Assembly (NCBI GenBank): GCA_964187785.1
Contig: OZ076409.1
Location: 10,232,001-10,296,000 of the forward strand
Direction of reading: 5' to 3'
DNA: 64,000 nt
From: Amphiscolops sp. MND2022
Taxonomy: Eukaryota
The position numbers and the translations under genes were made by a program. Shown piece by piece: positions 1 through 52,776 of the stretch. A model generated the notes under the pieces. That model searched no databases, was not told where the DNA came from, and worked only from the letters and a program-made list of their open reading frames with translations. Within the stretch, counting starts at the first letter, position 1, and every line of letters begins with the position of its first letter.

Positions 1-1137
1 GGAATTAGCGTTGACCTTACGTCTTGCTTTAGGATTTTTATTAGGATATTTTAGGTGCCATAGTAAACCAAGTAGATTTGTTCCATTAAGGAAGTACTAA
101 ACAAAGCATAATGTCAACGCGATCTAGTGATTTACCATGATGATATAAATCCAGAACATAAAAATACCATTGCCATTTCTATCATCCTTCCTTACAGTAC
201 AGTTTTCCTTATATAAGAATCATGACTCTTACATCTTTTAAACGCATCGATATAAAAAACTTCATTTGGTTTTCGTTTGAACCAGTATTTCTCGTTTGCG
301 ATTTTACAATTCGCTCCGTAGATGCTACGTATTAAGATTACCTATAGTTGGACAGCGGAATACAATTTTACAATCCGCTCCGTGAGTGCTCCGTACGTAT
401 TAGGATTGCTTATAGCTGAGCAGCAGTAGCAAGCGGAGTGAAAACGAAGAGCGTAGGCGATTCTATTCTCTTTTCATAGCTAGTAAGCGTTGCTAGGGGC
501 AACCAAGCGTAATTCTACTGGTACGAGCTCAGATAATTCCGCCGGCAAGTGACGCTATTGGTCCGTAAAAATAGAAACGCATGTTACTAAACCTAGTTGA
601 GTGACGCTGTCATAACGTTGTAAACATTTACTTAAAATCACTTGACTGCGATTTTAAGTGGATATTTAACAACTACTTTAATATTCGAATACATTTCCAC
701 TCTGTTTTTGTGTGTTCTTTCATTTTAGATCTCATGGACGCCGTTGGGATCTCGGAGTTAAACGTTGTTTTTGTGTTTTCATTTTAGTGTGGAGCGCCAA
801 AATGATCCCGTTTGCAAAATTATTTAGTGCTTAGATTGGAATGGAAAACTCAGAAGATAAAACCGGAAATAAAACGGTGTTGCGTGTGAAAACATTAGAC
901 CGGAAATTTTAGCTAGTTTAAAGTCATTTCTGAAAATCTTCAGTAACGCTTACGTTGAATTCTGTATCTGAAAATTATTCGCACTTATTTAACTGTACTG
1001 TAAGTAGAATTTTTGGTTTGGGTTTGACTAGTTTAACAAAGTTTAAAGGTATTTACTCTGTCCTTGTCCATGTCCTCGGCCGAATCCCGGTATTCCAGAG
1101 CAGCAAGTAAAATTACGACCGGGAGCGGGTCGTGACA
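1..1137 (-). repeat. 3' LTR of element A (partial)
   Basis: Colinear with 14175-15311, about 30 substitutions by manual count (~97% identity); ends GTCGTGACA at 1137. Confidence 0.93.
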
Positions 1138-1917
1138 GGGCCCCTCTTGAAGCAAGAGACAAGGGTAGACCGTGGCAATGCGGGATTTCTTTTTTCATTA
1201 AAACTGAAGGGCGGCTGATGTATTTTCGTACTTGGTGGGGACCACGTCCTCTTCCCGCTTTCATGTATTCAATTTTCTTCTCCTCTTCTTCTAAGTCGAG
1301 TACCATTTTTTCCAGATATTGCATTTCTTCAGGAGAAATCTCGGGCGGCTTGCTTTTCTCGTTCAGGTCATTCAGGGGACTATCAGGACAACGGTTTTTT
1401 TTCGGTAGGGCAGCTACTCTCGGTGCGTAACTACCACGTCCCACAGCCGCAAAGTAATTGCGGTCTTCTATATCTAGGTTGTATGTAGCTTCCAGCTCCA
1501 TTATTGATGGCTCGTTTTTATTCCCCGGCTTGATTGTCTCCGGCGCTCTCTCATTTCCTAGCTGAGGGATGTTGAATTTCTCTTTTAGCGGCATTGTAGG
1601 TTTCAACGTGGAGGTCTGGCATATTGGTGAGTCTGGCTCCTCATAGTAGCTATCGGAGTCCGATATTGAACCTCTTGCGGGGGGCAGATCAAACGAAACT
1701 TTAGGAGCTTTTTCTTTTTGGGAGTAGGTTCCGTTTTCTTTACGTCGCAGTCTGTTTCAAAAGTTGAATCCAGTTCGGCGTCAGTGGATCGCCAAGCCTC
1801 TAGTGATGAGTCGCTTATATTCAATTTTCCGACCATGTTCACGGGCACTGTTTTAATTGGCGTGCTGGTCATTCCTTCATCCGATGAGATGTTAATGTCT
1901 AAGGAGTAGCCGTTCAT
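1043..1917 (-). CDS. Sense-strand 3' accessory ORF(s) of element A, unknown function; runs into the 3' LTR
   Basis: Overlapping ORFs 1603-1917 (ATG start) and 1043-1606, probably one frameshifted gene; basic KKKK patch; no recognisable domain. Confidence 0.45.
1138..1148 (-). promoter_or_regulatory. Candidate polypurine tract of element A
   Basis: Minus strand reads AAGAGGGGCCC immediately before the TGTCA start of the 3' LTR. Confidence 0.55.
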
Positions 1918-2439
1918 TTTCGTAATCGTGCCTAGAGAATTTCTTAAGATTACTTCTTGTTGATGAAAGATCGCGCGTTGAGAATATTCAGAATTTTAGG
2001 CTTGTCAAGCTGCAGATTTGGACGACAAACGAACGTTTTAAGTTCTTTACCTTCGCGAATTCCATTGAAATTCTATTTTTCGCTTTCGTTTCGGTGCGAC
2101 TTAAGTCAGGAAGGGAAAGTTTGTTAACTGCATTGTGATTGGTCGAAACTTGTAGGAAAAGTTTCTAGTTTTACGTTCCGTTTCTTTCTCGGTCGATGAC
2201 GTCTTCGGAACTTCTTGGTGATTTTGTTCACCTGTAGGTCATTTTGGAGACGTTTTGTTTCCACCAATGCCATAATAGGCTTTCACTGAAGTTGAAGATA
2301 AGATGATTTTCCTGGTTACGTAGGGATGACGTTGCTTATTTCTTTTAGGGTGTCTCTTTTTACTCGACGTGATTTCTATTTTGTTGATTTTTTTTCTCTT
2401 TTTAGATTTCGTTGACAGTCGCTATTGTCACTCTTGGTC

Positions 2440-5400
2440 ATGAGTGAAGACGCTGTTCCTCCCGGTGTCTCTGGCTTTCTCAGTGGGCATGAGACTAACT
2501 TCTGCTTCACTGAAGACGACGCTTATCCTTCGGAAACGGAAGTTGTAGTTACTTCTTCAGGTTGGTAAAATCTTTCTGACTTCCTGGGCAATAGGACTAA
2601 TGTTATTTTGGTGATCAGCCTTTTATAGTCTTACCCGTAACTCTGACGCCTCTGAACCAGATCTTGATTTCCAGTAACTCAACCTGGAACTTCCTCGGCT
2701 GTTGTTTCCGCTGCCACTGCGGGTGGGACCTCTGCTACCCCCGTGGGGTTATCTTTGCTGGGTTCTTCTTTGAAGTTGCCTCCAGTGACTTCAGTGCTGG
2801 TTCCTGAGCAGTCCATCAATGATGCTTTGACGACGTTGCTTCCTGCTAATCCTACTACTGAATCTTCAGTAGTTCCGGGCGTTGATGTTTCCTCTGCGGT
2901 TCCTCCTGATTTGTCCGAAGTAGTTCCGGGCAATTTTGATGTCAGTGTGGAGCCTCATGGAAGTGAGGCTGCTACCACCTCCACAGGAGAAGAAAATGCG
3001 GTAGAAGAGGAGAATACGCCAGGCTGTAAGTTGTGTATTTGCATGATTATTTCCTTTTGTTGTTTTTATTATATTTTTTCTTTTTGCCCACTTGTTGGGC
3101 TCTGTTTTCCAGTTTTCATCACGCTTGTGTTGTAGGTTCGAAGGTGTTTCCATTCCGGAAGACGAGCGTGAAGTTCATGGAATCTTCTCCGAAAATAAAA
3201 AGGACAGCACGGGTCCCAGAGCTTGATGTCACCTTTGAGCGGTTGGAGTGGGGCAGAAGACGTATCATTTTCGGCGACTCCTGTGTCACCCGAAATGATG
3301 CAGCTGGGTCGTCAGTTAGCTTCAACGGTAGAAGAGCGTACGGCTCGGCAGATACAGACAGGTGTGTTGTTTGTTTGTGATTGGCCTCCTGTTGATGGTG
3401 TGTAGTACGTTGCGGCGACGTTTGTTTTGGGTATTTCATTTGTTTGATTATTTTTGTGTGTATTATAGTCTTTAGCGAGCTTGTTGAGATAGTGGAGAGT
3501 CACTTTGAGCGCCCGAAGACAAAAAAGTATAGCAGTCGTATTGCATCGTCGGATGCTAGCCTTGAATCCGTTGTTTGCTGATTTCGTGACGGGTTCGGAG
3601 TGTGGAAGTGCAAAGCTCTTCTATTGTCGTATTTGTAGAAGAGAAGTAAAGATGGGCTCAAAAGGGGCAGCTGAGTTTGTTCGTCATTTTGAGTCGAAGA
3701 AGCATTGGGAGCAGGACGTCACGTATCGTGTGCACATGGGTCTCCCTGTGTACAACAAGCTAATGAAGCCCATGGAGCTGGGTGCCCGACAGAGGGACGA
3801 CTTTCTTTCGCGGCCCTTCGTGGATTTGGGCGGGGAGTTTCCTTTCCCTGAGGACATGTTGCCCAAACATTCAAAAGCGTCTTCGAAGGTGCCACTGATG
3901 ACTCTCGTTTCGAGCTTGAGTGATGTGTTACGCAGTGGCGGAGATTTCACGTTAGTCCGTCGCCTGTGGGGCTATTTCCTTGCGTCTCTGGGCGGTCGGG
4001 ATTCGGAATTCACGCTACAGTGGAGTCGTTCAGAGACAGTGGTTAGTACTTTTGTGTAGTTAGTTCATTTAGTGAGTGGTGTTCTGTTGTGTCGCATTTG
4101 CTCCTTTTATTGTAAGCTGCTAGGTAGCCATAAAGGTGTACTGTGGTGTGATTTCGTTCTCTGTTGTTGTTTGTTTTCTCTTCCTTCTTCTTTTTCATTT
4201 GAGTGTTTGTTTTAGTCCGTGTTGTGTCAAGGCCTTGTTCCCCGCGTGTTGCGCGTGATGTTCAAAAATATTGGGCAATTTCGGGAGTATGCTCTACAAT
4301 ACGAGAAGAGTACGGAGGTGGAGCGTTGTTTCGTTCTCTTCTGGGAGGACAATTATTTGAAAAAGGTATGTGTTGGTTGTGAGTCGCTGCTGCAGCGTGT
4401 GCCAACACCAGAGTTGCTGCCCTTGGCACGAGTCGTCTGTAGTCTACCGTCTGGGAAGTTGCCCTTGGCCATAGTTGGCGGAAGTCCGTCCTTAGTCCGT
4501 GTCTTGGGTGACACTCGAGCTGACAGTCGTGTCTTCGTGTCTTACCAGCCTTTCACTAGTGAGATGTTGATTCGTTGTATCCGGCAAGCCTACCAAGACG
4601 TGTTCAGTATGATGGAGGTGACTTCCCTGGTGGATTATACTGTGTTACGCTTGAATACTGCCATTTACGAGGACTGGATGGAGGAGAGAACCATACTGTG
4701 TAAAAGTCTTCGTCAGGGCCACGTGGAATTCGCTGATTTGCGGGAAGTACTGTCAGATCTGATCGAGTTATGGTCCTCAATACGTCCATTTGTTCGATGT
4801 ACTGGTAACCCTGAGGCTAAGGACAAGGCTGAACGGGTGAGTGAAAATTGTTTTTTTCTTCCGATGTGATTGCGGTGTTACGTATTGTCGTATCCTGTTG
4901 TGTATATTTTAGCTGCAGGGGATTGATTGGTTACTAACTGCCGATAAAATGATAACGTATCGATTCGGTCTGCTGAAAGTGATCCTTGATACTTGTGAGT
5001 GTTCTCTTTTTGAGTTGATGGATGGTTTCTTGATTGTTGTTGACTGTGTATTTGTTCGTATCATTGGTTGTTCCTTTCTTTCTTCCCTTTTTTTTGAGTA
5101 TTGGGGTAGGGTTGTTCTTCTGTTGTATACGAATCATGGTGTATGTTTTAGTCCACAACAATTGCCCCAAGTTGCGACAGGGTCAGGCAGATTATGCTTT
5201 CCGTGCTTATGGCGAGTTTTGTAATTTTGTGTATTGCCTGCTCTTGAAAACTCGCAGCACCAGTGGTCTTCCTGAAATTCATGCTTGGGAGTCCTACATG
5301 GATGTCGTGAAGGTCCGAGATTTCGCTGTTATTCCGTGCGATTCCTTTCTTTCCAGTCATGACTTGGGCGAGCAGTTATCCGCAGGCAAGACGAAAGAGT

Positions 5401-6453
5401 ATGTGGCTTTCCGGCTTCATTGTCGACAGTTTGTTGATCGTCTGATCATCATTTTACTGGAAAGCACATATGCACGTTCTGTTATTGCCAAGGGGATGTG
5501 CAGTTTCTGTCCTGAGTTGATGTAGGAAGGTGATGATGTGGCCGTTTTCAGTCTATTTGCGGATTTGTGCCGTATTCTTGTATCCTGTGGTTCGCTGGGT
5601 GTGGACGAAAGTAGTGCAGCTTTGGAGGAACATGCGAGTTTCATTGTGGAAAAACGTGGGTATCATTCCTCGTCAGGGCAGTCTGCTGGTGACATCGTGG
5701 ATGTGGTGCCGTACCTGCTCCGTGATGTTGGATTTTTGTCACGACCACAATTGCTCCGAGTATTCAAGCTGTGTTGTCTTGTCTCGGGGGTGTCTGCCTC
5801 GCGCTATCCTGCCATGTCTCTGGATTTATCTGGAATTGCATTGAGTGTTGCAGACTTTCAGAGCTGTGTGCAACTGGTGCAGTCTTATATATTTAGCGAA
5901 GGATATTCGCATCAGTCCTTCTTCAGTGATCAGACTCTTAAAGTTGTGAAAAAGGCCATCGCAGATGCTGGTAGATTTTTTGGAGCGTCTAACTTCAGTA
6001 TGTGGACAGAGTTTTGCGGGGAGGATGTGGATGCCTTTGTTGCAAAGTATAGTACGCTATTTACTACTTTCCTCGTGGTGCGCCGGAAGAACTTCGATGC
6101 TCGTTATGTGGAGTACAACAAAGCAAATCGGATGTCTCGGTTGTCTGAAAGTGGCGATACAGCTGGTTCGAGTGGTTCCCTGAGTTCTGTGATTCAGCGG
6201 AGGAGGCAAGATACAGGTCCTCCGAGTGTTGTTTCCGTGAAGTCTGGTGGCAGTGAGTCAAGTAATGGCGGAACAAAGTCGGGGTCTAAGTCTGCTACTG
6301 TTTCGTCTAAAGGGAAGCAGCAGAAAAACGTCAGTGGTAATTCGGGTGGTGAAGCTGGTTCATCTAAAGGAAGAAAAGAAAACTGTGCGGGATGCTGATG
6401 ATGATGGCTCTGGTACTCAGCCAAAGCCTAAGAAAGTGTCCAAAGACTGTTGA
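2440..6453 (+). pseudogene. Antisense spliced gene of element A encoding a zinc-finger, hAT-transposase-like protein
   Basis: ATG at 2440. GT-AG introns at 2561-2674, 3026-3135, 3362-3468, 4042-4215, 4837-4912 and 4995-5151; the first and last three join the ORFs exactly in frame. Probable 1-nt indels near 3200 and 3525 and an in-frame TAG at 5523. Contains the motif CRIC-x16-HFESKKH. Confidence 0.82.
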
Positions 6454-6864
6454 TGATTTGATTTCTTGTAGACTTTGATGTAGTTATATTTTTCTTTTAT
6501 TGTCCGCTGATCTCCGTTGTATTAGTCTTTGACTATATAGTTTTAGAGAATCCCGAGAAAAATTGACGTAGCCATTCCGGTTCGGTTTGGTTTGCTGAGT
6601 GTTTTGGCTAGTCTTGAGTTGGACGTGAGTCCTCCGTAGTAGCTGAGTCAAGCATTCGAAAATGAGGATTGACATTAGGATTCGGATTAGGTCGTAAGTT
6701 GTATCTTCCCACTTTTCTAGGATTATATCCAACGACGATACGCGGCAATTGGGGTGTTTTGGGAGGGCTTTGTATCGGCGGTGGGGTCAAAATATATGGG
6801 TTATCACTGACATTTAGATCAAATGAGGTAACGTTGTCGGAGGGTGTTCTATCTCCTTCAGTGT

Positions 6865-6995
6865 TTTCATTTGTGGGTGTTTGAACCATTTCATTTTCCA
6901 TTGTAGTTTCGCCAGTGGTTGTTTTAACCACGTCATTTTCCGTTGTAACTTCGCTTGTGGTTGTTTTAACCACTCCATTTTCCGTTGTGCTGTCG
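6865..6995 (-). repeat. 42-bp coding tandem repeat in the integrase C-terminal tail
   Basis: TTENGVVKTTTSEV / TTENDVVKTTTGET / TMENEMVQTPTNEN. Confidence 0.75.
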
Positions 6996-9900
6996 ACGTT
7001 TCCTGTTGTGTCTGCGATTTCTGTAACTGTAGCTTCTTCGGCAGCGTTTTCTGTGGTATTTCCGAACAGAACTTCTCCGAATTCGGTTTCCCAAGCTTGC
7101 GCGTACCAATCATTGTGGGTTGTTTTAACCTCTGGATCTGGAAGGTAATCTTCCCTTCTGACCGTTACATCAGGTACTCGCTGATTGGGCGCATATAGCC
7201 TTAGGCGAATTCTATGGAGGGTTTGAGTATACCTAGTTCCCGTGCGACAAACGACGTAGTTGTTGTTCGAGAGTACTTTGACTAGTATGTAGGGTCCAGT
7301 CCAAATGCAATCTTTAAAGGCGAATTTCATTGACTGATTGTCTGCCTTCGGATTAAGGACGTAGCAGTAGTCGTTGACTTTGAGCGGTGTAGCCGTTGCT
7401 TTCTTGTCATAGTACTGTTTGTATTTGAGGTAAGACTGCATTAGGTTCTCTTTGGCAGCTTGGTGTATTTCGGCTATTTGTTTCTGTAGTTGGTCTGTTA
7501 GTTCTTCGTTGCTATCTTTTTCCCAGTTAGGTTTCAATCCAAGTTTTATGTCCAAAATGTTGTACGGAATGCGTCCGTGAAACACTGTTGTAGGTTCACA
7601 ACCTAGGCTTTCATGGTAGCTTGTATTGTAATTCATGACTGCAATCTGGACGTATTTGTGCCACATAGAGCGTCGTTCTCCCGTTGATATCTTCAAAGGG
7701 GTTTTCAAAGAAGCATGAGTCCTTTCTAGGATGCCAATTGTTTGGGCGTGTTTCGTCGATGCGTGGCTTATCCGTATATCCAGTGTTTGTGCTATTTGGT
7801 TGACTACTTCTGACCTGAATTGTGATCCTTTATCCGTTAGAATGACGGTCGGTAGATAGCAGTGTCGTGTCATGACGTCTATTATGCATCGTGTGACTGT
7901 TTTTGCTGTCATATCTTGAGTCGGGTAAGCAAAAAGGTAACGCGAAAAAACATCCATCATTGTTATGATGTGTTGGTATCCATTTGAGAAAAGTAGGTTT
8001 GGTAGGATATCTACTTCTAGACAGTCTTCTGGTCCCATTGTGAATTCAGTGTTGCTTAGCATTTTGGGACGTATCTGTCTCGTGTCAATTCTTTTATTGG
8101 CAATGCAGTCCTGACAACTGGTTACCCAAGCTCTGATTTTGCGTGCAAGACACGGGAAGTAGTATTTCGTTCTGCATTCTTGTATCATTTTGGTGATTCC
8201 TGGGTGTTTATTTGTTTTTCCATGTAGAGTGGCCAAGAGTTCTGGGACTAGGTGTTTTGGAATTATAATTTGGTTATGGGTGACAGATCCGTCTTCTCCG
8301 TAGTATTTTCGCATCAGAACTCCATCTTTCATTATGATTCTTTCTTCGTGGCGTAATAGGTTTCGTCCTCGTGGTTCAGTTTTGAGAAGGTGTTTGTCAT
8401 ATTCTTCGTGTGAGATCCGTTGTTTCAGTGATTTGAGGAGAGGGTCTGCATCTTGCTCGTTTCTGATCCGTGCATTTTCCTTAATTGCACCGAAGGAGTA
8501 GACTGCGGAGTTGAGTGGTATCTTGATGACTTCGGTTACTTTTGTTGATAGTTCTCTCTCATGTTCGTCTAGGGCACGTCGCTTGCTGAGTGCTTTTCGG
8601 GCGAAAAATTCCTGTTCAGATTCATCTTCTTCGTCTGGTAGGAACAAAAGCTGTTCCTCGTCAGCTACATCTGATGATTGTAGGTTAACCTCGATTGGGG
8701 ACGTTAGGATGTCGTCTCGTAGTTTATATTGTACCTTTTCTTTCGGTGTAAGTTCAAGTCTTGAGAGAAAATATGCTGCCGTGTTTTGGGAGCCTGCTAC
8801 GTGCATAATTCGGAACTTGAATTGTAATACATATTCACAGGCATTCCAGAGTGCAGGGGGTGTCGTTTTTGTCTGGAAGAATCTAGTTACTGAGCGGTTG
8901 TCCGTTAAGACCAGCGTTGGAATTGTTGTTTCCCATAGTATGTGACTGTATTCGAGGAAAGCATGGTAGATTGCGAAGAATTCCTTGCAATAGATGGACA
9001 TTTCCAGTTGTGCAGGTGAAAAAACTCGTGATCCGAACGCTACTGGTGCGAAGGTTTTTCGTTTGGAGAGTATTTTGCGTTCGTCGTTCTCCTCAATCAT
9101 GAGGGCGTAGCCTGATGCACGAAAGCTTGCATCCGTCATTAGAACGTACTGTTTTCCTGCTATGGGCTGTCGGAGTGCGAGTCCACAAGCTTCCGCTAAA
9201 CTGGCGTTAATTTCTTTAAAGTTATCGACAAGTTCTTCTGAAATTCTGATCTTGGAGTCTCCTTTGAGAAGTTCGTACATGCCGAAGAGTTTTTCTGACA
9301 AGCGCGGTATGTAATTGCGGTAATAGTTAACAAAGCCAATGTATTTCTGAACTTGTTTTTTGGATTTGGAGAAGCGGACTTTGGAGAGGAAATTTTTGAC
9401 CTTTTGATCTTGCGGGGCTACTCCGTCGGGGGTGATGGTTCGGCCAAGAAATTCGATTTGGGTTTCTCCAAAGTGACATTTTTCGATGGTTAGTTTGAGT
9501 CCTGCCTTTCTAATGCACTTGAAGACTCTGCTCTGATGTTCTTTATAAGCTGTTCCGTTGTATTTGCGGCGATGCCAATGTCATCTACATATTGTGCACA
9601 TTGGTCTGCTTTGATGACTGAATCCAGATACTCACGCATAAAGCTCGAAAAAGCTGAAAGAGCTCTGCTTAGTCCTTGTGCCAGGCGACGGTAGGCGAAC
9701 GTCCTACTAGCAAAATTGAAAGCAAGTAATTCTACTGACCTTTGATCTGCCATTTGGAGGCAGTGGTACGCCTGGGAGCAGTCAAGCTTGCAGAATAGTT
9801 TTTTCCCTGCTAGGTGTTGTGCCGCGTCTGAGAGGGTGCTGACAGGGTGGTTGTTGTTGATGTAGTCATCTGCTATGAGTGCATTGATTTTGCGCAGATC

Positions 9901-11827
9901 CACCAGCAGTCTCAGCTTGCCGTTGTGTTTCCGCTGTGCAAATATAGGACTGGCGTACTTGGAGAAGGGGAGTGTCGTGATGATACCGTATCGGTGCATG
10001 AGGGCCAGTTCCACAGTTAGTTCTTCTTTGAGGTTGATGGGGACTGGTAGGCTTTGTGTTTAGACTGGTTTGTCGTCTTGTGGTGTTAGACTGACTTTGA
10101 ATTGTGTGTTCATCCCGATGTGTAGCCGGTGTCGGGCGAAGATGTCGTTGAAATCGACAATGGTGTCCTCAAGGTTTTCACGGTCTTTGTTCGCAATCAG
10201 TGAATCTGTCCATTTGAACATGGATAGAAATTTGTTTCGAGACTCTTCGTTTTCGGTTGGGTCAAGTTTTTCTAACTCGGCCAGGTCTCGCAGTTCTTTC
10301 AAGATTCGCTTTTGTATGGGCGAATGTTCCTGTTCGTTGCCTGGGTGTTCTGGGGTTGGAAACCAGAATTTCTCTTCATTATCGTCGGGCCGCTCTACTT
10401 GCATTGGTGCATTAATGTACGTAACCACATCGTCATGTTCGGTGAGAAGATTCAGGGCGGCTATGTCAACTGGACGGATCATCTTCGTTTCTTCGGGTTT
10501 CAGGATTTGCAGTTCGGCCATTTTGGTGTCAGTGGCTATTGTGTATGGGAAGTCTGAGTTATTGGCGATTTTGATTGGTATCTTTTTATCCCTGGCTGTG
10601 GTAATTGCTGGGGCCACTATTACCTTCGCGCATTCGTCAAATTGTGGTAAAGGTTGTATTGTGCCAGTTATTGAGTGTTCGGTACTCACAGGGATTGTTG
10701 CGTAGATGATTCGGGTAGAGTGTGCTGGAATTGTATGCTTGGCTTCGGTCTTTATTGTGATGGGCTTGGGATTGCACTTTTGTCTTTCATCTGTGAGCGC
10801 CGTCGTGATTTGGATTTTAGGAAAGTCGATGGTTCCTTGTGCCGTGTCGAGAAATGCGGCGTGTTTACGTAGGAACGCTAATCCGATTATGGGGAATGAC
10901 GTTTGATTCATGATGATGAATGTTTCTTCGAAGGTGTAGGCCCCTATTTTGAAACGTAGGGTGTACGTGGCGAGTGGTTGTTCTAATTCAGCATTGGCAT
11001 ACTGCACTTTGAAAGGGGGTGGGGGTGCCTTGTTGACGATGCACTGGCTAGCGTGCTGTCGGAGTTTTTCAGCGTCCCTTTCACTAATAGCGTTAAAGTA
11101 CGCACCTGAGTCGACTAGAGCGTCGATTTTGATTGTGTTGAATTCGACTGGTAGAAAAAGCATTCGTTTTTTCTTCTTGAGAGCGATGGAAGACATTAAC
11201 AGATTGTAGTCGTCATCTTTGTCGTGTTGGATGAATTCTTTGATGGCATCTAGATCTTCAGGCAGTTTTGAGGGACATTCCGTGATTTCTACGTCGTCGT
11301 CCATCAGTGCTGTGACTGGCGCAGTTTTTGGAGGGGTTACTGGAGGATCAGCATTTTCTCGTTTTCGTCTTTCTTGATGTGCCCATATTGTTTTATCTTC
11401 AATGCAGATTATATTTTCTTCATCTATCGGTGTGGACGTGATGGTGGCGGGTACTGTTGGGGATGGTGTTGTTCTTTTCAGGATCGGTGACGGCGGTGAT
11501 GGTAGGTTTGTGATCCCCGTAGATTGAGCTTGAGGGTTTGAGACTTGGATTTTGAAGGATAGTTTATTTGTATCATAGATAGTTGGTTGATCCCAAGGGT
11601 CACATCTGTAGTCTCTGTCATTTATATAAATTCGGTCTGTTTTTGATTCCGGCAACGGTCTTTTGAGTGTCGCATAGTTATCGGGTGACTCCGTTATCCA
11701 CTGGGGTAGTGGCGTTGGGTCGTCTGAGTGTCTGGCGTTATGCCTGACTATCATGCCTACGTTCCAACGGCGTTGCCAGTCTTGAGTTGGTTCTTCATTA
11801 CATTCGGTTAAAAAATCTTCCTCATAC

Positions 11828-11907
11828 CTGTTTGGGGGGTCCTCTATCGTGTACGCCCTCGCGTCTACTTTTTCCCCAAATCGTAGGCGCGGCGATTTCA
11901 GTTTTTT
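11828..11907 (-). promoter_or_regulatory. Programmed -1 frameshift signal (A AAA AAC plus stem/pseudoknot)
   Basis: Heptamer 11907-11901 directly precedes the gag TGA; the -1 frame is open into the 564-aa protease ORF; a GC-rich stem follows, and its loop TTTGGGG is complementary to downstream CCCCAAA. Confidence 0.8.
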
Positions 11908-13307
11908 GACTGGGAGGACAGTGTGGGTACAGGTTGTTCGCTGATTTTGTTGGTTGGAATGGTGAATTCATGTTTCTTCCTTCTGGGGTCATTTGCTGCA
12001 TTGGTTCCGTTCCAACAGTTCTCAGTTTTGTGCATCTTGCCACATCTATCACACTTGGGCTTGGGTGCTTCGTTTTGGGCTGGGTCTTTTGTGTTTGTTT
12101 TGGCGATATTGTAGCGCTCTCGTTGAAGTCGGCGACACTGTGCTTTATAGTGGCCATATTTGCCACAGTGAAAGCAATGACCTCGTTGTTGTTGGTCTTT
12201 TTTATCGTCCGTCACTACGGCGTCCACTGTGATGAGTGGGACTAGGGTTGTTTCGTCGGGCGCACCTAGTCCGTTTAATCTCATTTCCCTCTCAAGATGC
12301 AAAACTACGTCAGTGTAGGGCTTATCTTCCAAATACGCTCTGTTGAGGATCTTCTTGACGTGATCCGGCATTTTGGCGTAGATTGCTTTATCAATGAATC
12401 TTTGTGCTTCTGAGCCGAATGCTTCTTTTGCAGTTTTTTGCAGGGCATCAAGGAACTCATGGAGTTTCTGTTTAGTGGGGTCAAAATGCAGCGCATCCCA
12501 CTCGCATCTCGCTTTAGCACATGATTGGAAATCACCAAAGCGACGTTTGAATGCCGTTATGACTTCTTCTAGGTTGTCTTTTTTAGTGTCATCTAGATTA
12601 CAATACGCTTGTAGCGCGTTTCCTCGTAGGAGTGAATGGAAGTAGTTGATCTTTTGTATCTCAGTTAGGTGAGGGTACATTTTGATATTATTTCGGAATA
12701 GGTCCTGAAAAAGTTCAAACTTTTCGGACTTACCATCGAAGACTGGAAGCGAAGCAGTGAGTGCTTTCGGCATCGGAAGTAGGTTGGTAGCTGAAAATGT
12801 TTGCGGTTGTGGCGCGAACAGTATTTTAGATGTTGAAGGACGGTCTTTTGTCTGCTCGTTGGATGCACGTTGTTGTTTCGATCTTTTCGTGGGTTGGTTG
12901 GTAGAGTCATTGAGGACTCCTGTCACCATGTTACGACTATTTATCGGTGTTGTTTTAGAGTTAGCCGCATTGTGAGTTTTGACTGGGGTAGACGTCCTTG
13001 CTACGGAAACATTCTCCGTTTCAGAGTCAGAGTCTTGAACATTCACGTGGCCAGTTTGTTTCTTGTTTAAAGGCGCTATCAGTTTAAGCATTTCCTTTTG
13101 ATTTTCCGCAAGTATTTTAGTCAGATCAGACATAATCTCCTTTCTTAGTGACGTTTTAATCTCAGCCAAGCCCTCTGGTTCTATCCTAGGAATCTTGCTG
13201 GAACTTGCTAAAAGGGTTTCAGGCGGAAAGTTTTCGGTTACAGAAGTTTCGAAATCACCAGGGACTAAACCAGCTACGATTATCTTTTTCTGGCTTCTAG
13301 TTGTCAT
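11898..13307 (-). CDS. gag: Gag of element A (469 aa from the first ATG), two zinc knuckles
   Basis: LPVFDGKSEKF...LLRGNAL capsid-like motif; CFHCGKYGHYKAQC and CDRCGKMHKTENC. Confidence 0.9.
   Translation of the reverse strand: MTTRSQKKIIVAGLVPGDFETSVTENFPPETLLASSSKIPRIEPEGLAEIKTSLRKEIMSDLTKILAENQKEMLKLIAPLNKKQTGHVNVQDSDSETENVSVARTSTPVKTHNAANSKTTPINSRNMVTGVLNDSTNQPTKRSKQQRASNEQTKDRPSTSKILFAPQPQTFSATNLLPMPKALTASLPVFDGKSEKFELFQDLFRNNIKMYPHLTEIQKINYFHSLLRGNALQAYCNLDDTKKDNLEEVITAFKRRFGDFQSCAKARCEWDALHFDPTKQKLHEFLDALQKTAKEAFGSEAQRFIDKAIYAKMPDHVKKILNRAYLEDKPYTDVVLHLEREMRLNGLGAPDETTLVPLITVDAVVTDDKKDQQQRGHCFHCGKYGHYKAQCRRLQRERYNIAKTNTKDPAQNEAPKPKCDRCGKMHKTENCWNGTNAANDPRRKKHEFTIPTNKISEQPVPTLSSQSKN
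12914..12928 (-). promoter_or_regulatory. Primer-binding site of element A (tRNA-Leu-like)
   Basis: TGGTGACAGGAGTCC abuts the LTR end and is identical in element C; the first 13 nt differ at one position from the typical tRNA-Leu(CAG) PBS TGGTGTCAGGAGT (from memory). Confidence 0.75.
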
Positions 13308-15311
13308 TTCGGTTGAGAGAGAGAGAGAAAGTATCTTTGGAAAAGTTGAATTCTTCGAAGAGTTTAGTTTCCTTTCAAACACGTTATGATAACGGAACAG
13401 AGCTAATTATTACAAAGCAGGTCAAAAACTAACTGAATTACATGTATGTTTTACATATTTATACCTTCCCAGCATCATTTGTTCCTCACCTAAAAATTCC
13501 TAGGTATCACAAAAATCGGGTTTGTTCAACAAAAAGTGCTAATGATTCATATTATTTCAGTCCCGCGTCATAAAATCAGGTATCAAAATTCCTAGTTGCG
13601 TCAGCGTTCCGTAAAACTTTGTTGAAATCATTTTTGTTCAGGCGATTCATTTCCTGTTTGAGTTTCAAAAATGCGGCAAAATAGAAGTCTAGCTGGCATT
13701 TTCATTAGCGTAGGCACCCCGGCGTGATCAATTAGTCAGCAATCAGGTTGGGAAACTGAAGTTTGAAGCAAAAGAATGACACTCAAAAATGGCGACGGAA
13801 TCGCGACGGAATGAATTAACTTGGAAGCGGAAGGAAAATATGGAAATTTGGTATAAAAGAACAAACGATGCTGAAACGATAATCCCAAATTCAAACATAT
13901 GAATTACCTGCTAATGGCATACTACATCATTTATACTGAACACAAATTAAGTCCGAACGGGACTTTAACGGAATGCAACAATGATTATACTGCTAATTAG
14001 ATGAGCGCAACATATTCGTAGTATTAAGTGGAAAGCAACTTCAACATTTTACACAATAATCGTGAAATTTGTCAGAACATAACCATAGTTTGGGTCAAAA
14101 CATAATCATAGTTTGGTCATTAGCCTGATTGTTGTTATCACAAAATACAACTGTTATTACTGACTTGAAAACAAGGAATTAGCGTTGACCTTACGTCTTG
14201 CATTAGGATTATTATTAAGATATTTTAGGTGCCATAGTAAACCAAGTAGATTTGTTCCATTAAGGAAGTACTAAACAAAGCATAATGTCAACGCGATCTA
14301 GTGATTTACCATGATGATATAAATCCAGAACATAAAAATACCATTGCAATTTCTATCATCCTTCCTTACAGTACAGTTTTCCTTATATAAGAATCATAAC
14401 TCTTAAATCTTTTAAACGCATCGATTTAAAAAACTTCATTTGGTTTTCGTTTGAACCAGTATTTCTCATTTGCGATTTTACAATTCGCTCCGTAGATGCT
14501 ACGTATTAAGATTACCTATAGTTGGACAGCGGAATACAATTTTACAATCCGCTCCGTAAGTGCTCCGTACGTATTAAGATTGCATATAGCTGAGCAGCAG
14601 TAGCAAGCGGAGTGAAAACGGAGAGCGTAGGCGATTCTATTCTCTTTTCTAAGCTAGTAAGCGTTGCTAGGGGCAACCAAGCGTAATTCTACTGGTACGA
14701 GCTCAGATTATTCCGCCGGCAAGTGACGCTATTGGTCCGTAAAAATAGAAACGCCTGTTACTAAGCCTAGTTGAGTGACGCTGTCATAACGTTGTAAACA
14801 TTTACTTAAAATCACTTGACTGCGATTTTAAGTGGATATTTAACAACTACTTTAATATTGGAATACATTTCCACTCTGTTTTTGTATGTTCTTTCATTTT
14901 AGATCTCATGGACTCCGTTGGGATCTCGGAGTTAAACGTTGTTTTTGTGTTTTCATTTTAGTGTGGAGCGCCAAAATGATCCCGTTTGCAAAATTATTTA
15001 GTGTTTAGATTGGAATGGAAAACTCAGAAGATAAAACCGGAAATAAAGCGGTGTTGCGTGTGAAAACATTAGACCGGAAGTTTTAGCTAGTTTAAAGTCA
15101 TTTCTTAAAATCTTCCGTAACGCTTACGTTGAATTCTGTATCTGAAAATTATTCGCACTTATTTAACTGTACTGTAAGTAGAATTTTTGGTTTGGTTTTG
15201 ACTAGTTTAACAAAGTTTAAAGGTATTTACTCTGTCCTTGTCCATGTCCTCTGCCGAATCCCGGTATTGCAGAGCAGCAAGTAAAATTACAACCGGGAGC
15301 GGGTCGTGACA
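12929..15311 (-). repeat. 5' LTR of element A (~2.38 kb)
   Basis: Termini TGTTACGAC...GTCGTGACA form an imperfect inverted repeat; PBS is adjacent; the right half matches 1-1137. Confidence 0.82.
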
Positions 15312-15983
15312 GTACCAGTTAGATTTCATGATGCCTCTTGTAAACAGCTTACATCCACTTCTCAATGTTTTTTGTCTCATTTTTCGAAACATTATAATGA
15401 AAGAACGATTCAAAATGCTTCTAACAGTTGTTTGATTCGTATCGTATTTATTTCGAAATCGAATGCTGCAGATGAAATTGTAACCTTCATGTGATACTGG
15501 ATCTCTATAACTTGTGAACTGTCTGAAGACAAAACAATAAACTGGCATTTCTTCAAAAATTAGTCATCGTAAAAAAATGATCATAAGTTCTAAGGCTGTC
15601 ATTCAGGAATTGCTTGAAATTAATATTTGATATCGGGTACCAGTTTCAAATTTCTGTCAACTCATCAGCGCCCAGTTTCAAAAATATTACTTTCATCTGA
15701 GAGCATAGGTTATCTCGAAATGTTGCTGGATGATAGGTGGTTCAGGAGCGTGTTCAAGATGTGCCAAATGCTAAAATTTTGCATTCAATGTTAACCAAAG
15801 GAATGCGAATCACCAATTTTGAAGCTGGGACCCAGACAGTTTATGGTCTGGTTTGAGTTGATCATGATCACATTCAAAACGGCATTAAAAAGTTTCTTTC
15901 GTAAGTTTCTTTCGCATTCAATCCTTTTATTTCCAACATTTCTGTACCAATTTAAAATACAATACACTTACTTCAAAAAACCC

Positions 15984-16260
15984 TGAGCTGTTAAAGACTG
16001 TTTTATGTTTAGATTTAGTTCTTTTAGAGAGCACATAAGAAGTGTAGAAGTCTGAACAGGATATCGTCTGTTTAGCTAGCTATTTCTAGAATCACAGTTC
16101 TCTGAGATCTCAGTTAGGTCTTTCTCTTCGAAGAAAACTAATCAACAGATCAGAATCCGACTTCTCTTTCTTCTGAATATATATCATCAGCAATTTTATC
16201 AATGATTGCAGGGATTAAATATAATTCTGAATATTCTAAAGTGACAGTAATAAGATTCTC
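15984..16260 (-). repeat. Partial 3' LTR of element B
   Basis: Shares TGAGCTGTTAAA, CATAAGAAGT, TAGCTAGCTA and TCTGAGATCTCAGTT with the D LTR; inner boundary approximate. Confidence 0.7.
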
Positions 16261-23559: not shown

Positions 23560-26500
23560 CAGGATATAACTGAAATGGTAGACAAACTTACCACGGTCTC
23601 GAACGAGGGTTCTTCTTTTTGGCACTTTGTGCAAACCTCTGACAGTTTGTGACGGTTGCGGGTGAACATAGGTGTTGGCTTTCTCATAGCTGAATAAAAC
23701 ATCACAATTCGGTTCGTCAACATCAGGTCTTCGGCACAAAAAAGAGAGGCGCTCCTCGGGAATTGCTTCCTTCGTGAACCTCACGCCATCCTCGTTGATA
23801 ACCCAGTTACTCCTTCCGAAGAAAGGCTTGGGGCAAAGAAGATATGGTTTTTTTCAGGCCGTCTCCTTGAAAGCGGTGACACAAACATCGTTTACGATGT
23901 TTATGCGCTGTAAACGAGTCCTTGATGAATTCTGGGCAACTCTGAAACAAAACTCGTGATAACACACTATGCTTTTTGATCCTCTTCGTTGATTACCAAT
24001 TTGCTTTTGGTCCCTGTCGTGAGTCACAACGTCATCATGAACATTATGATAACTGCTCAAACTTTGATTTTTATTCATGTCGTGAGTCAAAACACGGCTT
24101 CATTGTACACATACTTTATTCGATCTCTATTTTGATTCAAAACGATTGTGAACTCGGTCAAAAAACATAACTCACAGCAACGGCTTCACTTTCTTGATAA
24201 GGATTCCCAATTACCCTGTGAATTCGAAGGATGTTCGGAGTTATCATGCAACTCTCTCTGATGCTTTGAGCATAAAAACAGCTAGCATTTCCAACATGCC
24301 CGGTAATTTCTCATTATCCCTGAAGGACTCTTCTTCAATGATTGCCTTCATGATCGGATTCGAGAGGCCTTCCGAAAGAATTTCGTCCCTACTGCCACAG
24401 AGTCTCCACTTGTGAGGATTGCACGGATGTACTGAGACGGCATGACGTAAACGTCGCCCGGATTAGGAGTAACCCTGAGACAACCCTCATCCAGTCTTTT
24501 GTGGCACCCAAAAAAATGTTGGCTCAAAAAGAAAACTGTTGGAACTCAGTGAGTATTATCAAAACTTTCGGCGATGCAAAAACAAAATATAGTGCATTGA
24601 AAGTTGGAAATTTTGCATTTACAATGAAAACACGTACGGAAAGTTGTCCCGTGTATTGTTTCCTAATATCAGCAGAACATAATTTAAACTAGAAGTTGAA
24701 GGTAGTATTTAATCTACAGAAGGTGCAAAACAATACAGAAGTAGATGGACACAGAGGCTTAAACTCGTTGATGAATCAATACAACTTACATGTCCCCACG
24801 TTCATGTTTGGACCAGGCCTTGAACAACTCTATGTTGTTTTCAGTTGGTGCAACCAGAAAGAAGGTCTTGGACCCAGCCAAGACTGTATAAAAGATATGT
24901 TGAACTGAAGTCCGTGTGCCAAGTTGTTTGACAACCATCGTAGGAGATCAGCAAGTAGTATGAAGTCGCTACTGAGTACGGTTCTTCTGGCTTACTGACC
25001 AGCTCATTCACAAGGTGGTTCACTGACAACTTTTTAAATCATCGTTGGCACGTTGTAGATGGACTGAAAAGACAAAAAATAAATATAAGTTGAAGAAGTT
25101 GTTTCAAAACAATGTGCATTATGTTAAGTAAAAACCTCAAACTCCAATTTTTAGGCAACGGCTGGAAAACAGGGGGTTGGGGAAAAACAGAAAAGTAGTT
25201 TTCCAGTTGATTCGCGTTTTCCATCAAAGGTGCCCATTATTTACCTTTGGCTGCATGGCGATACCTATAGCGTTTAAAGGATAGTAAATCTTTAACGCTG
25301 CCTATGTCGGCGTTGATGAGCTCCTGCTTGAACTCATCCAGACTGAGGTCGCGACTATGAAATGAAATGCTCAAACGTGACTGAGACGGGAATAGGACGG
25401 GCAACTTTCTCCTCGTTAGAATAGTTCAAATGCAGTTGTTCGACGAGGTGGAAAATGAGCTCACGACAGGGATCAAATTGCAGTTGTTCCAAGTATTTTA
25501 CGAAGTATACAAGCTTCAAATTGAAAGTAAGTCTACCAAAGACTTACTTCTCCAATTTTTGCCGACTTGACATTGATGGTTGCTGCACTTGATTGTAGCT
25601 TGTGGGGAACTAGAAGCTCTTTGACAACTTCAGTGAAGGCGAGTTCTTCCACTTGAGGCAGCTTCAAACCATGGCAACGGTTGACGCCTCCACGCCACAA
25701 AAGAGGCACACTGTGTCTCATCAGGAAAATGAATTTGACATGGTCGTCAACGTTGCCTCCCATTGAGCTACAGGAAACTCGTAGTAGAGGGGCACTTCCA
25801 TCGCGAACTGGAACAATCCATTAGATCCAAACACATCAGGAGGAATATGGTTGAAATCTTCTGGCCTGAATCGCTCCTCAGTGTTACTAGAGGAATCTGA
25901 GCCCAAGTGTACTGCAGCCTGAGCAGTTGTCAGTGTTAGCAAAACTATACATATTCCAATAAAATGAATTTCAGTCACACTTTCACCCTGTAAAACACGG
26001 CGTTTCGAGAATCAAATGGTCAATCAAATCTTTCAACATATGTGATTAAAGAGATAAAAATTAGGACAGGCACTCACATTCGCTCCTTCCAGGCATTGAG
26101 GACTCTTCAAAAGGTGTACGCGCAAGTTATAAGCGTAAACATCTGATTTGACCCAACATCTGATGTAGCATAAGTTAGGCTTCTGCTTCAAGCCTTTTGC
26201 AGCTGCTGTAACATAGAAGTTACATGAATAAAAACACATGTTTTGTTCGAAACCGCGACTATCTTTTCAAAATCATTGAGTTTCTCTTATCGTTTTGGGC
26301 ATGACACACTGATCTTTTCAAAATGTTACAAGTCGATCAATTTTTGACATACCTTGTAATGACTAACCGTACTGGTACATTCGGGTGAGCAGGCCTCCTG
26401 CTTTCCGCTTTTGCTGCTCCTTACAATACTTTGACTTGTAGTGCTTCTTCAGCAGTTTTTGGCGGAATTGATAAGGCCGCAGAGCTGACACGTTCTCTCC

Positions 26501-26790
26501 ATGAGCTTGAACTGCTCTCGTGGCAATCGGGGACAGACTTTGCGGTGGCATAGGATGTTGGACAGCTTGTCCACAACGTCACAAGTGCCTAAAAAGAACT
26601 CCATATGTCAGTTTAAGTTTTTCCGTGAAAGAAATCAGCAAGCTTGATTACGTTATACCACGTTACAGCTTGATCACAAAAATTATTGTTTATCGAACCT
26701 TGGCCGCACTGGACCTTCTCTGGTGTCTTTCGATGAGACGTGGATGGTGTATTTGGCAGTGTTGCCCTTTGATCTCTACTGAAAAATTCC
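23560..26790 (-). pseudogene. Decayed multi-exon JmjC-domain gene (KDM2/KDM7-like core) with Cys/His-rich flanking exons
   Basis: YLLISYDGCQTTWHTDFSS(fs)IFYTVLAGSKTFFLVAPTENNIELFKAW, a GTAAGT donor at ~24789, then FFGC...CLRVTPNPGDVYVMPSQYIRAILTSGDSVAVGTKF; outer limits approximate. Confidence 0.75.
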
Positions 26791-27139
26791 AGAAAGTCAC
26801 TCTTGAGTTATACACCATTCATTATTGTATGAAATTAACTATAAAATGATTGTCAAATATATACATTCAACAACTCACAACAAGTCACACTATTCCAGGA
26901 AGTCACAGTTCCTCATAGATCATTCCTGCGACAACTGTCATAAAACATTCAATAGTAAATAAGGTAACAGAGGGAAAGTCAACTCGATGCAGTCAAAAAT
27001 TGCGCTAACGACGGGGATCAAAATTTCGACTGATGAAATTCTCAGAGAAAACGTCACGGCGAAAAGATATTTCATGGAAGTATAAGTTGAACAGCGATTA
27101 TTTGGATTATTCTATCGTCCTTTATCTACCATAAGTTTA

Positions 27140-27352
27140 AAATCTGCACTGAAATGATAATGAAGCGGTCATAGAGATCTTGTCTGATAAAGTAAGTTAG
27201 TTTTGGATATGCACTGAAAAGATAATGAAGCGGTCAAAGGGACCTTGTCTGATCATAATGGTAAGTTTCAGATATGGACTGAAACGATAATGAAGCGGTC
27301 AAAGGGACCATGTCTGATGAAATAAGTAAGTTTTAGATCTGCACTGAAATGA
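27140..27352. repeat. 65-bp tandem repeat, ~3.3 copies
   Basis: G(C/G)ACTGAAA at 27146, 27211, 27276 and 27341; the first three are followed by GATAATGAAGCGGTCA. Confidence 0.85.
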
Positions 27353-27544
27353 GTCGGTATTGAACGTTGTCTGTTTTCCTCTTCAAGGCGGCCTTTTTAG
27401 TGTATTCTTGTATTTCCGCATTGCTGTGTGGTAATTTAATGAACCATGTCGTTGGGGGGTTGAATGACGTTGTAATTGTGGGGCCATTGACATGTACTTC
27501 ATCTTTTTGAATTTGGCTCTCGCAGACTCATCTACTTCGAAAAC

Positions 27545-29950: not shown

Positions 29951-30109
29951 TTGACTTTTATGATTTTTGTTGATTGTTGCGTTGTATATTTATCACAGTT
30001 AGGTTAGTTTGTTCTGAAGTTTGGAATGGAATTTTTTTGATAAACTGATTTTGATTTGAGTTGGTTAAATTTGAAAACCGTCGGGCTGGTTCAGTCTGGA
30101 CTCTGATAT

Positions 30110-36071: not shown

Positions 36072-36472
36072 TGAGCTGTTAAAAAGTTGTGTGGTGGTTT
36101 CCTTTAGAAGAGTTAGAACTGACATAAGAAGTCTAAGATTTTAACAGCAGAGTCGTCTTATCTTTTATCTTGTAGCTAGCTAGTTCTGAGTACAATCTAT
36201 TTCTGAGATCTCAGTTCTTGAAGTATGGGAGGAAGACTGATTGCTAGGATGAATTCTCAATTTCTCCGAGTAGATATATTCTATTAACTAGGGTAGGTTA
36301 CATCAATTAACAATGTGACAGCAACAGGATGAAGCATGGGAGTTTGATACAGGATCTATTAAATGAAGTTTCTTAGCTTCTAAATTAGATTACATTTACT
36401 AATTGAGTTGGTTAAGAGTTCAGAGTATTTCAAATTTATAGAATCTTTGAGGACATGCATCATGGCATCACA
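36072..36472 (-). repeat. 3' LTR of element D
   Basis: TGAGCTG...CATCACA; 6 substitutions vs 53612-54012 by manual count (~98.5%). Confidence 0.95.
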
Positions 36473-40111: not shown

Positions 40112-40320
40112 TTTAAAGTTAAAGTACTATAAATTACACTAACGAGTGGATTTGTCAACTTTAGTTGAAGAGTTTTTGAAGACGGTTATTATGAGAGAAG
40201 TATTATTGGGCTGAGGAAGGTGAATTTCGGCAAGAGTTTCGAGTGGTGGAGGAGTAGCAATTGTGAAGAAATAGTAGACAAGTGTACTGAAAGAGAGTTA
40301 CAGAAAAACTGAAAGAGTGT

Positions 40321-44220: not shown

Positions 44221-44328
44221 TTGTTGAAGTGTTCTCAACAGGTTATCTTTGAGATAACTTGTTATGGGTTATATTTCATTCAACCGGAGTGACTAGTTTT
44301 GAGTGAGCCAACAGATAGAATGACTAGA

Positions 44329-52528: not shown

Positions 52529-52776
52529 TATATGATATTAAGTTTGATTAGTACAATAAAATTGCCATAAAGGATAGATGTATCGGAAAAGAAGATATTT
52601 TGTATTGAATTGTGAGTTATATGGAAAATTTGATCTATGAAAACCACTTGTAAGAAAATAGTAAGTGCAATACTTATGAAAAGAAGAAATGGGTTTTGTA
52701 TATATTGGATAAGGGTATAAAATGTGTGGTAAATACTAAGTAGTCCAAAAAGAGGTAGTACTATACTTGTTAACAT
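52528..52776 (-). CDS. Upstream hydrophobic ORF (82 aa), stop overlaps the gag ATG
   Basis: Two or three hydrophobic stretches; TAATG overlap at 52530-52526. Confidence 0.45.
   Translation of the reverse strand: MLTSIVLPLFGLLSIYHTFYTLIQYIQNPFLLFISIALTIFLQVVFIDQIFHITHNSIQNIFFSDTSILYGNFIVLIKLNII

Follow-up and report, generated by a model that had tools for sequence, protein, structure and literature searches.

A probable catalytically inactive hAT-fold gene encoded antisense to pol in an LTR retrotransposon family of an animal, Amphiscolops sp.

From what is a gene derived that lies on the opposite strand between pol and the 3′ long terminal repeat (LTR) of a retrotransposon, and what could it do for the element that carries it? 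The question is raised by a stretch of 64,000 nucleotides from Amphiscolops sp. MND2022 (assembly GCA_964187785.1, contig OZ076409.1, positions 10,232,001 to 10,296,000), referred to below, at its full length, as the window. The genome comprises 1.07 Gb and is that of an animal, as judged by 47 matches to cadherin repeats at E<=1e-8 and none to chlorophyll a/b-binding proteins. Pfam matches and self-comparison place an LTR retrotransposon on the minus strand of the window, at 1-15312, and the approximately 5.5 kb separating its pol from the 3′ LTR are mostly filled by a gene on the plus strand, here called the antisense gene. An initial annotation, made from the sequence alone, had located this gene at 3505-6100 and read its product as a catalytically dead hAT transposase taken over by the retrotransposon. 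A gene is indeed present there and is larger than proposed, extending over at least 3553-6398, with the frame of its relatives reaching 6453; the exon at 4913-4994 had been overlooked. All the peptides on which that reading was based (EYALQYEKST, AIVGGSPS, HVEF...LIELWSSIRPF, RPQLLRVFKLCCLVS, VQLVQSYI and the zinc finger) are encoded on the plus strand, and SRSETV is joined to SVLCQGLVP only once the GT..AG intron at 4042-4215 is removed. With a high degree of confidence, the antisense gene can be identified as an accessory gene of the LTR retrotransposon whose product has the hAT fold and is catalytically inactive. The complete explanation, its function included, is at best somewhat favoured.

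The antisense gene consists of four exons separated by GT..AG introns (Table 1), and its 3′ end (6398, or 6453 in the relatives' frame) faces the 3′ end of pol (6608), so the two genes lie tail to tail. In 11 other copies no splice dinucleotide within coverage is altered; all six sites are covered in ten of these copies, and in the remaining one the first is not. When compared with locus L011, a copy diverged by about 10%, the exons are 92-95% identical and the introns 83-89% (87% for intron 1, whose flanking exons are 94-95% identical). The exon joins agree with the continuous frames of intron-less relatives. The short third exon is confirmed by the relative P0018, which lacks the intron that follows it, so that exons 3 and 4 form one frame (...LDTFH...). 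The intron-less version of the gene encodes 746-890 residues and is located in the same genome, where one of its representatives, P0202, finds matches at 100% identity.

The structure was modelled for P0202, using an alignment of 70 sequences that included the window exons. The model has a predicted local distance difference test score (pLDDT) of 85.3 and a predicted template modelling score (pTM) of 0.76. It begins with the finger, followed by β1 (residues 189-195), β2, β3, a helix, β4 (249-251), a further helix and β5; then come about 330 residues of helices and a helix at 628-642. As in Hermes, the RNase H-like core of the model is split by an extensive insertion domain composed of helices only. 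In a Foldseek search of the PDB the top ten rows were all Hermes (E 2e-4 to 2e-3, probability 1.00), as were all three matches at E<=0.001, and the first row other than Hermes had an E of 0.077 and a probability of 0.07. Three structure searches returned Hermes or hAT proteins only; in BFVD the single match at E<=0.001 was a pandoravirus protein with a hAT dimerisation domain. The structure score was 12.3 for Hermes versus 6.0 for ISCth4, 5.4 for Tn5 and 5.2 for RAG1. The match to Hermes spans about 400 residues and takes in both the insertion domain, at its full length, and the C-terminal part; the superposition has a root mean square deviation (rmsd) of 5.1-5.6 Å at 10-12% identity. The window exons are tied to P0202 by tblastn (E 3e-15, 4e-7 and 2e-20), the first of these values being obtained for exon 1 with P0202 residues 4-166. 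Exon 2 is also connected with the intron-less family by hhalign (probability 99.4%, E 3e-21) and maps to P0202 166-365. The structural comparison by which the initial annotation could be checked thus gave a match to Hermes, and a specific one. The intron-less relative is predicted to have the hAT architecture: an N-terminal zinc finger, an RNase H-like core and a large helical insertion.

The ligands of the zinc finger are nearly invariant among the intron-less members of the family (C24, C27, H44 and H50), and the region is modelled in P0202 as a β-hairpin and a helix at residues 21-46. The finger, included in the fold and the scans of the whole protein, gave sub-threshold C2H2-type Pfam matches only, with no match to zf-BED. 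A U1/matrin-type RNA-binding finger was also considered and was dropped, its sole basis being those sub-threshold matches.

Hermes requires D180, D248, R318, W319 and E572, as stated in PMC6027215, and in the initial annotation all the corresponding positions appeared to be substituted in the antisense protein. The position of the first Asp (D1) falls on Q194 of P0202, in β1, which corresponds to a Glu at 4303-4305 (+) of the window; the column contains Q13, E12, R9, H3, K2 and L1 among 40 family members. The position of the second (D2) falls on Q251-N252, directly after β4, corresponding to Val-Gly at 4474-4479 (+). The two columns are composed mainly of R12, L10, V7 and Q6, and of G32, N5 and D4, respectively (n = 43), and they are variable inside the window lineage as well. 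In the structure model, YALQYEK and LAIVGG, previously equated with the two Asp motifs, correspond to β1 and to β4 with the residues that follow it, where D1 and D2 sit in an RNase H-like transposase. At the sequence level, the likeness of the quoted motifs to those of hAT proteins does not exceed chance. According to these alignments, the family is shown to lack a conserved acidic residue at both catalytic Asp positions. No CxxH motif was seen in the alignments, which were judged by eye. In its best register, the least certain one, the third catalytic position (E572) is occupied mainly by A11, V9, P8, S8 and D4 (n = 51), the window having A. The Asp-Asp-Glu triad of Hermes (D180, D248, E572) is consequently not found, the register having been derived from secondary structure. 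The TRW motif had probably been misplaced at HVEF: a Trp conserved throughout the family is present in YEDWMEE, at 4675-4677, kept in at least 90% of the window lineage and invariant (W320) in the intron-less family. It is located 66-69 residues past the D2 position, versus 71 between D248 and W319 in Hermes, and the residue preceding it is not Arg. By its spacing only, this Trp may be considered a candidate equivalent of W319. Together with the highly conserved Gln-Ser pair listed in Table 1, it is a candidate for a role retained by the inactive protein.

Several points weigh against this reading. The fold was predicted for a relative that is 24-31% identical to the window exons and not for the spliced protein of the window itself. 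The residue equivalences were read from the secondary-structure register and from alignments rather than by superposing the structures residue by residue; within the window's own lineage the D1 position is a conserved Glu, and the column two residues beyond the best register for E572 is 63% acidic (D20 and E12 of 51). Pfam is empty for the window exons, for 21 relatives of exon 4 and for five other relatives including P0202; hhalign gave a probability of 0.1% for the family versus an alignment of six canonical hAT transposases, and a sequence-profile search of the PDB (hmmsearch) had no match at E<=10. Repeated 7-9-mers, which could represent an array of binding sites, are not above block-shuffled controls in the LTR and in the spacer between pol and the LTR. 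As regards exon 4 of the window lineage, it was folded alone with a pLDDT of 72.9 and gave no match to Hermes (Foldseek, VIA wide); this speaks neither for nor against the hAT fold, because neither the β-sheet nor one half of the insertion domain is contained in the piece.

At the sequence level, therefore, neither PF05699 (Dimer_Tnp_hAT) nor any hAT profile is matched, and the ESM Atlas yielded no usable match with exon 2 or with P0202. The control set, taken from the same genome, comprised six canonical hAT transposases with uninterrupted frames; the three of them scanned with Pfam match PF05699 at about 4e-17. This lack of sequence signal, together with the large rmsd and the low identity of the superposition, would fit a protein that is not hAT-derived and descends instead from another transposase superfamily, one having an RNase H core with a helical insertion but no solved structure, or from a host RNase H-like protein. 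Hermes would then be no more than the closest shape among those solved, since a superfamily of unsolved structure cannot turn up in the libraries searched. Such an origin is nevertheless improbable, since Hermes scores twice as high as the next transposase over some 400 residues and the single BFVD match is also a protein with a hAT domain. The N-terminal Cys2His2 finger is, in addition, placed like the BED finger of hAT proteins, and the zinc-finger stretch was the only one paired by hhalign with the canonical hAT alignment, at an E of 0.5, which is not significant.

The antisense gene is widespread in the family. Relatives were collected by a word-indexed search with exon 4 and by a profile search over 1.84 billion representatives; for the genome itself a subset of the matches was scored. 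The former search found 38 relatives at 35-97% identity, and the latter 908 protein clusters at E<=0.001. Among the genomic matches scored, 81 of 97 for exon 4, 132 of 150 for exon 1 and 44 of 60 for the intron-less form are free of stops; the 7,331-12,092 first-look candidates for these three queries are lower-bound screening counts and not copy numbers. In all 14 sampled loci pol lies tail to tail beside the antisense gene, and every copy examined sits inside an LTR element and not in a single- or low-copy host gene of the ZBED kind. The gene is thus present in most copies of the family and, in those examined, antisense to gag-pol and between pol and the 3′ LTR, which is not the pattern of a one-off transduction. 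A distinct lineage, related to the window element by 50-60% identity in pol and about 82% in the reverse transcriptase (RT), has the intron-less gene in the same antisense place behind its pol. No sequence of the Amphiscolops genome is more than 53% identical to the relative P0159; the family therefore occurs in at least one other organism as well. The possibility that the gene is confined to a few recent copies was considered separately and is contradicted by the genome counts, by the 14 loci and by its occurrence in the distinct lineage.

An ordinary hAT DNA transposon, inserted in one copy of the retrotransposon and then passively copied along with it, would also account for a hAT-like fold, and canonical hAT elements are numerous in this genome. 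This explanation is refuted in practice, its residual probability being negligible. The only inverted pairs in 1139-7000 are of 11-20 nt, at chance level, and none flanks the gene, so no terminal inverted repeats surround it; nor was an 8-bp target-site duplication found, the gene being internal to the LTR element. No acid is conserved at the D1 or D2 position, and a Pfam hAT domain like that of the canonical elements of the genome is not detected. The gene is also under purifying selection inside the retrotransposon family and common to lineages whose pols have diverged to 50-60% identity. Judged by the model, the antisense protein is of hAT shape without hAT chemistry and is not a nested transposon. 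The earlier proposal of a dead hAT scaffold within a retrotransposon is thereby supported and escapes both conditions set for its refutation, in view of the fold of the relative, the substituted Asp positions and the conserved location, although the profile part of the proposed check was negative. As to the canonical hAT elements themselves, those recorded as L027-L033 have uninterrupted frames of 448-690 residues with the standard D, D, CxxH, RW and E motifs, and L033 resembles an internally deleted derivative of the L030 type; for Dimer_Tnp_hAT, 150 matches were scored out of 2215 candidates in the genome.

The ratio of nonsynonymous to synonymous substitution rates (dN/dS) of the antisense gene, versus L011, is 0.09, 0.10 and 0.18 for exons 1, 2 and 4, at a dS of 0.17-0.23. 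Substitution patterns and open frames show that purifying selection maintains the gene in numerous copies, which belong to several diverged lineages. For the same pairs of elements dN is 0.047-0.050 in pol and 0.31-0.52 in the antisense gene, i.e., the antisense protein changes 6-10 times faster than pol in its amino acids. Locus L012 has a closely related pol (dS 0.12), yet its antisense gene is saturated (proportion of synonymous differences, pS, 0.67-0.83), which indicates an exchange of modules between lineages; the first segment of the C-terminal pol of L012 used for dN/dS spanned frameshifts (amino acid identity 0.58) and was disregarded. An antisense transcript of a retroelement need not be translated to have a regulatory effect, and the frames could have been kept open by a constraint on the sense RNA or by a regulatory antisense transcript, with a functionless protein. 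This is very improbable in view of the low dN/dS at a dS of about 0.2, which is a protein-level signature, of frames of 746-890 codons that remain open, and of the invariant Cys and His ligands and the confident globular fold predicted from co-varying sequences.

In the preferred explanation, the retrotransposon would have captured a gene of a hAT-type transposase, and the protein would have lost catalysis and kept nucleic-acid binding. The antisense introns cannot be removed from the sense genomic RNA and therefore survive each round of copying. Their orientation also means that integrated copies would have to supply the protein from an antisense transcript of its own; this transcript is predicted to be spliced, and the protein made from it would act in trans on its own family. 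The zinc finger combined with a dead transposase core suggests sequence-specific binding of nucleic acids, and the fast yet constrained evolution, together with the exchange between lineages, suggests a function in specificity or conflict. The favoured role, put forward tentatively, is that of a trans-acting regulator of the family's transcription or silencing. A somewhat bolder and more doubtful proposal is that the captured dead hAT may be a family-specific DNA-recognition module of a large animal LTR clade and partly responsible for its success, by shielding the element from silencing or by steering its insertion; fast evolution and exchange would, in that case, have been left behind by a co-evolution in which the partner was either the host's defences or the element's own binding sites.

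The same dead hAT-fold protein could instead be a cofactor of integration or nuclear entry, by which the pre-integration complex would be tethered to chromatin or to certain DNA sequences. Recognition of specific DNA by DNA-binding modules that derive from transposases is established for hAT transposases, and the tail of exon 4 is rich in Lys and Arg. Roles of this type are raised for antisense open reading frames (ORFs) of plant elements in PMC7264820. This role is ranked second and considered unlikely, since a protein made from an antisense transcript of integrated DNA is not produced in step with gag-pol.

Among known systems, Hermes and other hAT transposases are the nearest in shape; the antisense gene differs from them in having no detectable sequence similarity, no D1 or D2 acid, no CxxH by eye and no terminal inverted repeats, and in being encoded within an LTR retrotransposon, split by introns in one lineage. 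It is reminiscent of ZBED and DAYSLEEPER/SLEEPER, in which a hAT scaffold serves a non-transposase role, the catalytic residues being lost and the zinc finger kept. These are, however, host genes present in one or a few copies, whereas the antisense gene is carried on an abundant mobile element and the retrotransposon is presumably the beneficiary. In position, orientation and persistence it is similar to the antisense ORFs described, in PMC7264820 and PMC11963269, between pol and the 3′ LTR of the plant elements Grande, RIRE2 and Retand and of the fungal Boty. According to these sources, such ORFs are present in most copies of a family and a nuclear or DNA-binding regulatory role has been suggested for them; those of Retand carry Transposase_28 (PF04195), a plant-only domain of unknown function. 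Compared with these ORFs, the antisense gene occurs in an animal, has a hAT-like fold and spliceosomal introns, and contains no Pfam domain; PF04195 was not matched at E<=1 by the window exons and the 21 relatives of exon 4, or at E<=0.1 by P0202. Affiliation with a plant Retand-like element was rejected, the host being an animal and PF04195 being absent.

Two further systems are similar in mode or pattern only. HBZ is made from a spliced antisense transcript of integrated DNA. It is described in PMC11963269 as an antisense-encoded nuclear regulator of a retrovirus, HTLV-1. The likeness lies in a regulator-type protein encoded on the opposite strand of an integrated retroelement and is an analogy of mode, not membership: HBZ is a small basic leucine zipper (bZIP) protein without a transposase fold, unrelated by descent to the antisense gene. 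The VANC proteins are anti-silencing proteins of VANDAL (Mutator) DNA transposons, which evolve fast and act on their own family. Such a pattern would fit the fast evolution and module exchange of the antisense gene; VANC proteins have another fold and another carrier, a plant DNA transposon, and the likeness concerns the pattern of evolution only.

The antisense gene combines two known kinds, antisense accessory ORFs and transposase domestication. The latter is known as the host's doing, and in the present case a second mobile element would probably profit from it. If the bolder proposal is true, a DNA transposase would for the first time be seen to have been domesticated by a retrotransposon. 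Searches of the full-text literature, the coverage of which leaves out most subscription journals and the Repbase reports, turned up no LTR retrotransposon with a hAT-like gene, although an earlier description is possible. Should the preferred explanation hold, the gene would lengthen the short list of accessory genes known from LTR retrotransposons, and would give an antisense ORF of a little-understood class a recognisable fold, from which testable hypotheses follow on DNA binding, oligomerisation and the loss of cleavage. The antisense introns provide a natural marker by which the gene's own mRNA can be told from genomic RNA. An abundant family whose protein evolves several-fold faster than pol and is nonetheless under purifying selection is a candidate for studies of the conflict between elements and host silencing.

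The window's own copy of the element is dead. Its antisense gene contains one stop and two frameshifts, and its pol is broken, the frames being interrupted between the protease, the RT and the remainder. The first frameshift is located near 3540-3552, just before the conserved Met; in L011-L014 the peptide encoded upstream of it runs into exon 1 without a change of frame, and it can be aligned with the N-terminal end of the intron-less relatives. The other is close to the 3′ end of the gene, where residues 411-438 of the relative P0004 match 6367-6450 in another frame (tblastn). Further 5′ exons may begin at about 2440, where an open frame runs across a 125-nt intron-like block and into 2687 onward. 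Compared with L012-L014, in whose coding regions the silent sites have reached saturation, this block is 77-90% identical in nucleotides. It matched no Rfam family, and RNAalifold found a two-sided change in one of 33 pairs, the variation being too small for covariation. The block may be a conserved intron of the 5′ region of the antisense gene or a cis-acting element of either strand. The coordinates of all these features are collected in Table 1.

Table 1. Features of the LTR retrotransposon, its antisense gene and a related remnant in the 64,000-nt window.
Feature	Coordinates	Strand	Remarks
3′ LTR	1-1138	-	outer end 1138; clipped by the window start
Two overlapping sense-strand ORFs	1995-1603 and 1756-1043	-	adjoin and enter the 3′ LTR
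Polypurine-tract-like run	1139-1156	-	adjoins the 3′ LTR; minus strand reads ...AAGAGGGGCC, then LTR; deduced from the junction sequence
Possible first exon	2440-2561	+	ATG at 2440, frame open to a GT donor at 2562; uncertain
125-nt GT..AG block	2562-2686	+	intron-like; strongly conserved between sub-families
Conserved coding stretch SELVEIVESHFERPKTKKYSSR...	3469-3552	+	upstream of Met-3553; out of frame with exon 1 in the window copy
Exon 1	3553-4041	+	163 codons from the conserved Met; zinc finger and region preceding the RNase H-like core
Zinc finger	3625-3705	+	C25-x2-C28-x16-H45-x5-H51; CRIC...HFESKKH
Intron 1	4042-4215	+	GT..AG in every copy covering the sites
Exon 2	4216-4836	+	207 codons; predicted strands β1-β5 of the RNase H-like core, followed by the first part of the helical insertion
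Intron 2	4837-4912	+	GT..AG
Exon 3	4913-4994	+	82 nt; conserved splice sites
Intron 3	4995-5151	+	GT..AG
Exon 4	5152-6398	+	remainder of the predicted insertion domain, C-terminal part of the core, disordered Ser/Gly/Lys-rich tail
In-frame TAG	5523-5525	+	breaks the window copy; sense codon in 19/19 A1 relatives covering the column
Gln-Ser pair	5880-5885	+	Q in 50/51 and S in 50/51 members; first long helix after the insertion domain (P0202 628-642)
Frameshift region	6367-6453	+	frameshift near 6367-6380; relatives' frame ends at 6453 with a conserved C-terminal motif
RNase H and integrase	9580-6608	-	Pfam RT_RNaseH, Integrase_H2C2, rve
RT	10059-9490	-	Pfam RVT_1
Protease	11967-10060	-	Pfam Asp_protease
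gag	13406-11898	-	Pfam DUF1759, Retrotrans_gag
5′ LTR	14175-15312	-	outer end 15312; span is the stretch pairing with 1-1138
Decayed remnant of the antisense gene	27751-29649	+	tblastn with exons 2 and 4 at 33-49% identity; ORF 28056-28364

In the carrier element gag, protease, RT, RNase H and integrase follow one another between the LTRs in the Ty3/gypsy-type order. Its classing as Ty3/gypsy-type is provisional, since gag also matches DUF1759, a domain common in BEL/Pao elements. The two LTRs are 97.45% identical over 1138 nt. With 3 kb more of the contig included, the paired stretch grows to -1247..1138 vs 12925..15312, at 97.49% identity; the homology reaches beyond the LTR because a second, incomplete copy adjoins the 3′ LTR. 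This copy contains gag residues 18-159, 95% identical, and is broken off 1247 nt to the left of the window. The arrangement is that of tandem copies with one common LTR, and a similar tandem pattern can be seen at the C13 locus. The two sense-strand ORFs next to the 3′ LTR match loci L011 and L014 at the protein level (45-57% identity, E 1e-9 to 1e-21), with no nucleotide match reported there, and belong to no Pfam family; they may represent a fast-evolving third sense gene. An Rfam scan of 1-16000 matched no family. Tandem repeats in the same interval form small arrays only, and none with a score >=300 is present in 15300-64000. One of the small arrays, a 42-nt repeat in 2.8 copies with 85% matches, is located at 6873-6988, within the C-terminal low-complexity part of the pol ORF.

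Two other retroelements are present in the window. The decayed remnant of the antisense gene is carried by a second, degenerate related element at about 26000-36140, whose pol has many frame breaks and is about 71% identical in nucleotides to that of the first element, with which it shares the same skew in strand composition. A third LTR-type retroelement occupies 38990-52537 on the minus strand and contains gag, RT and RNase H, all at 47055-50726, an integrase at 45151-46833 and, at 40324-42498, an env-like ORF, which matches the Pfam family of viral fusion glycoproteins Monjiviricetes_fusion with an E of 1e-20. The region of this third element is also characterised by a strong GC skew, of 0.36-0.5.

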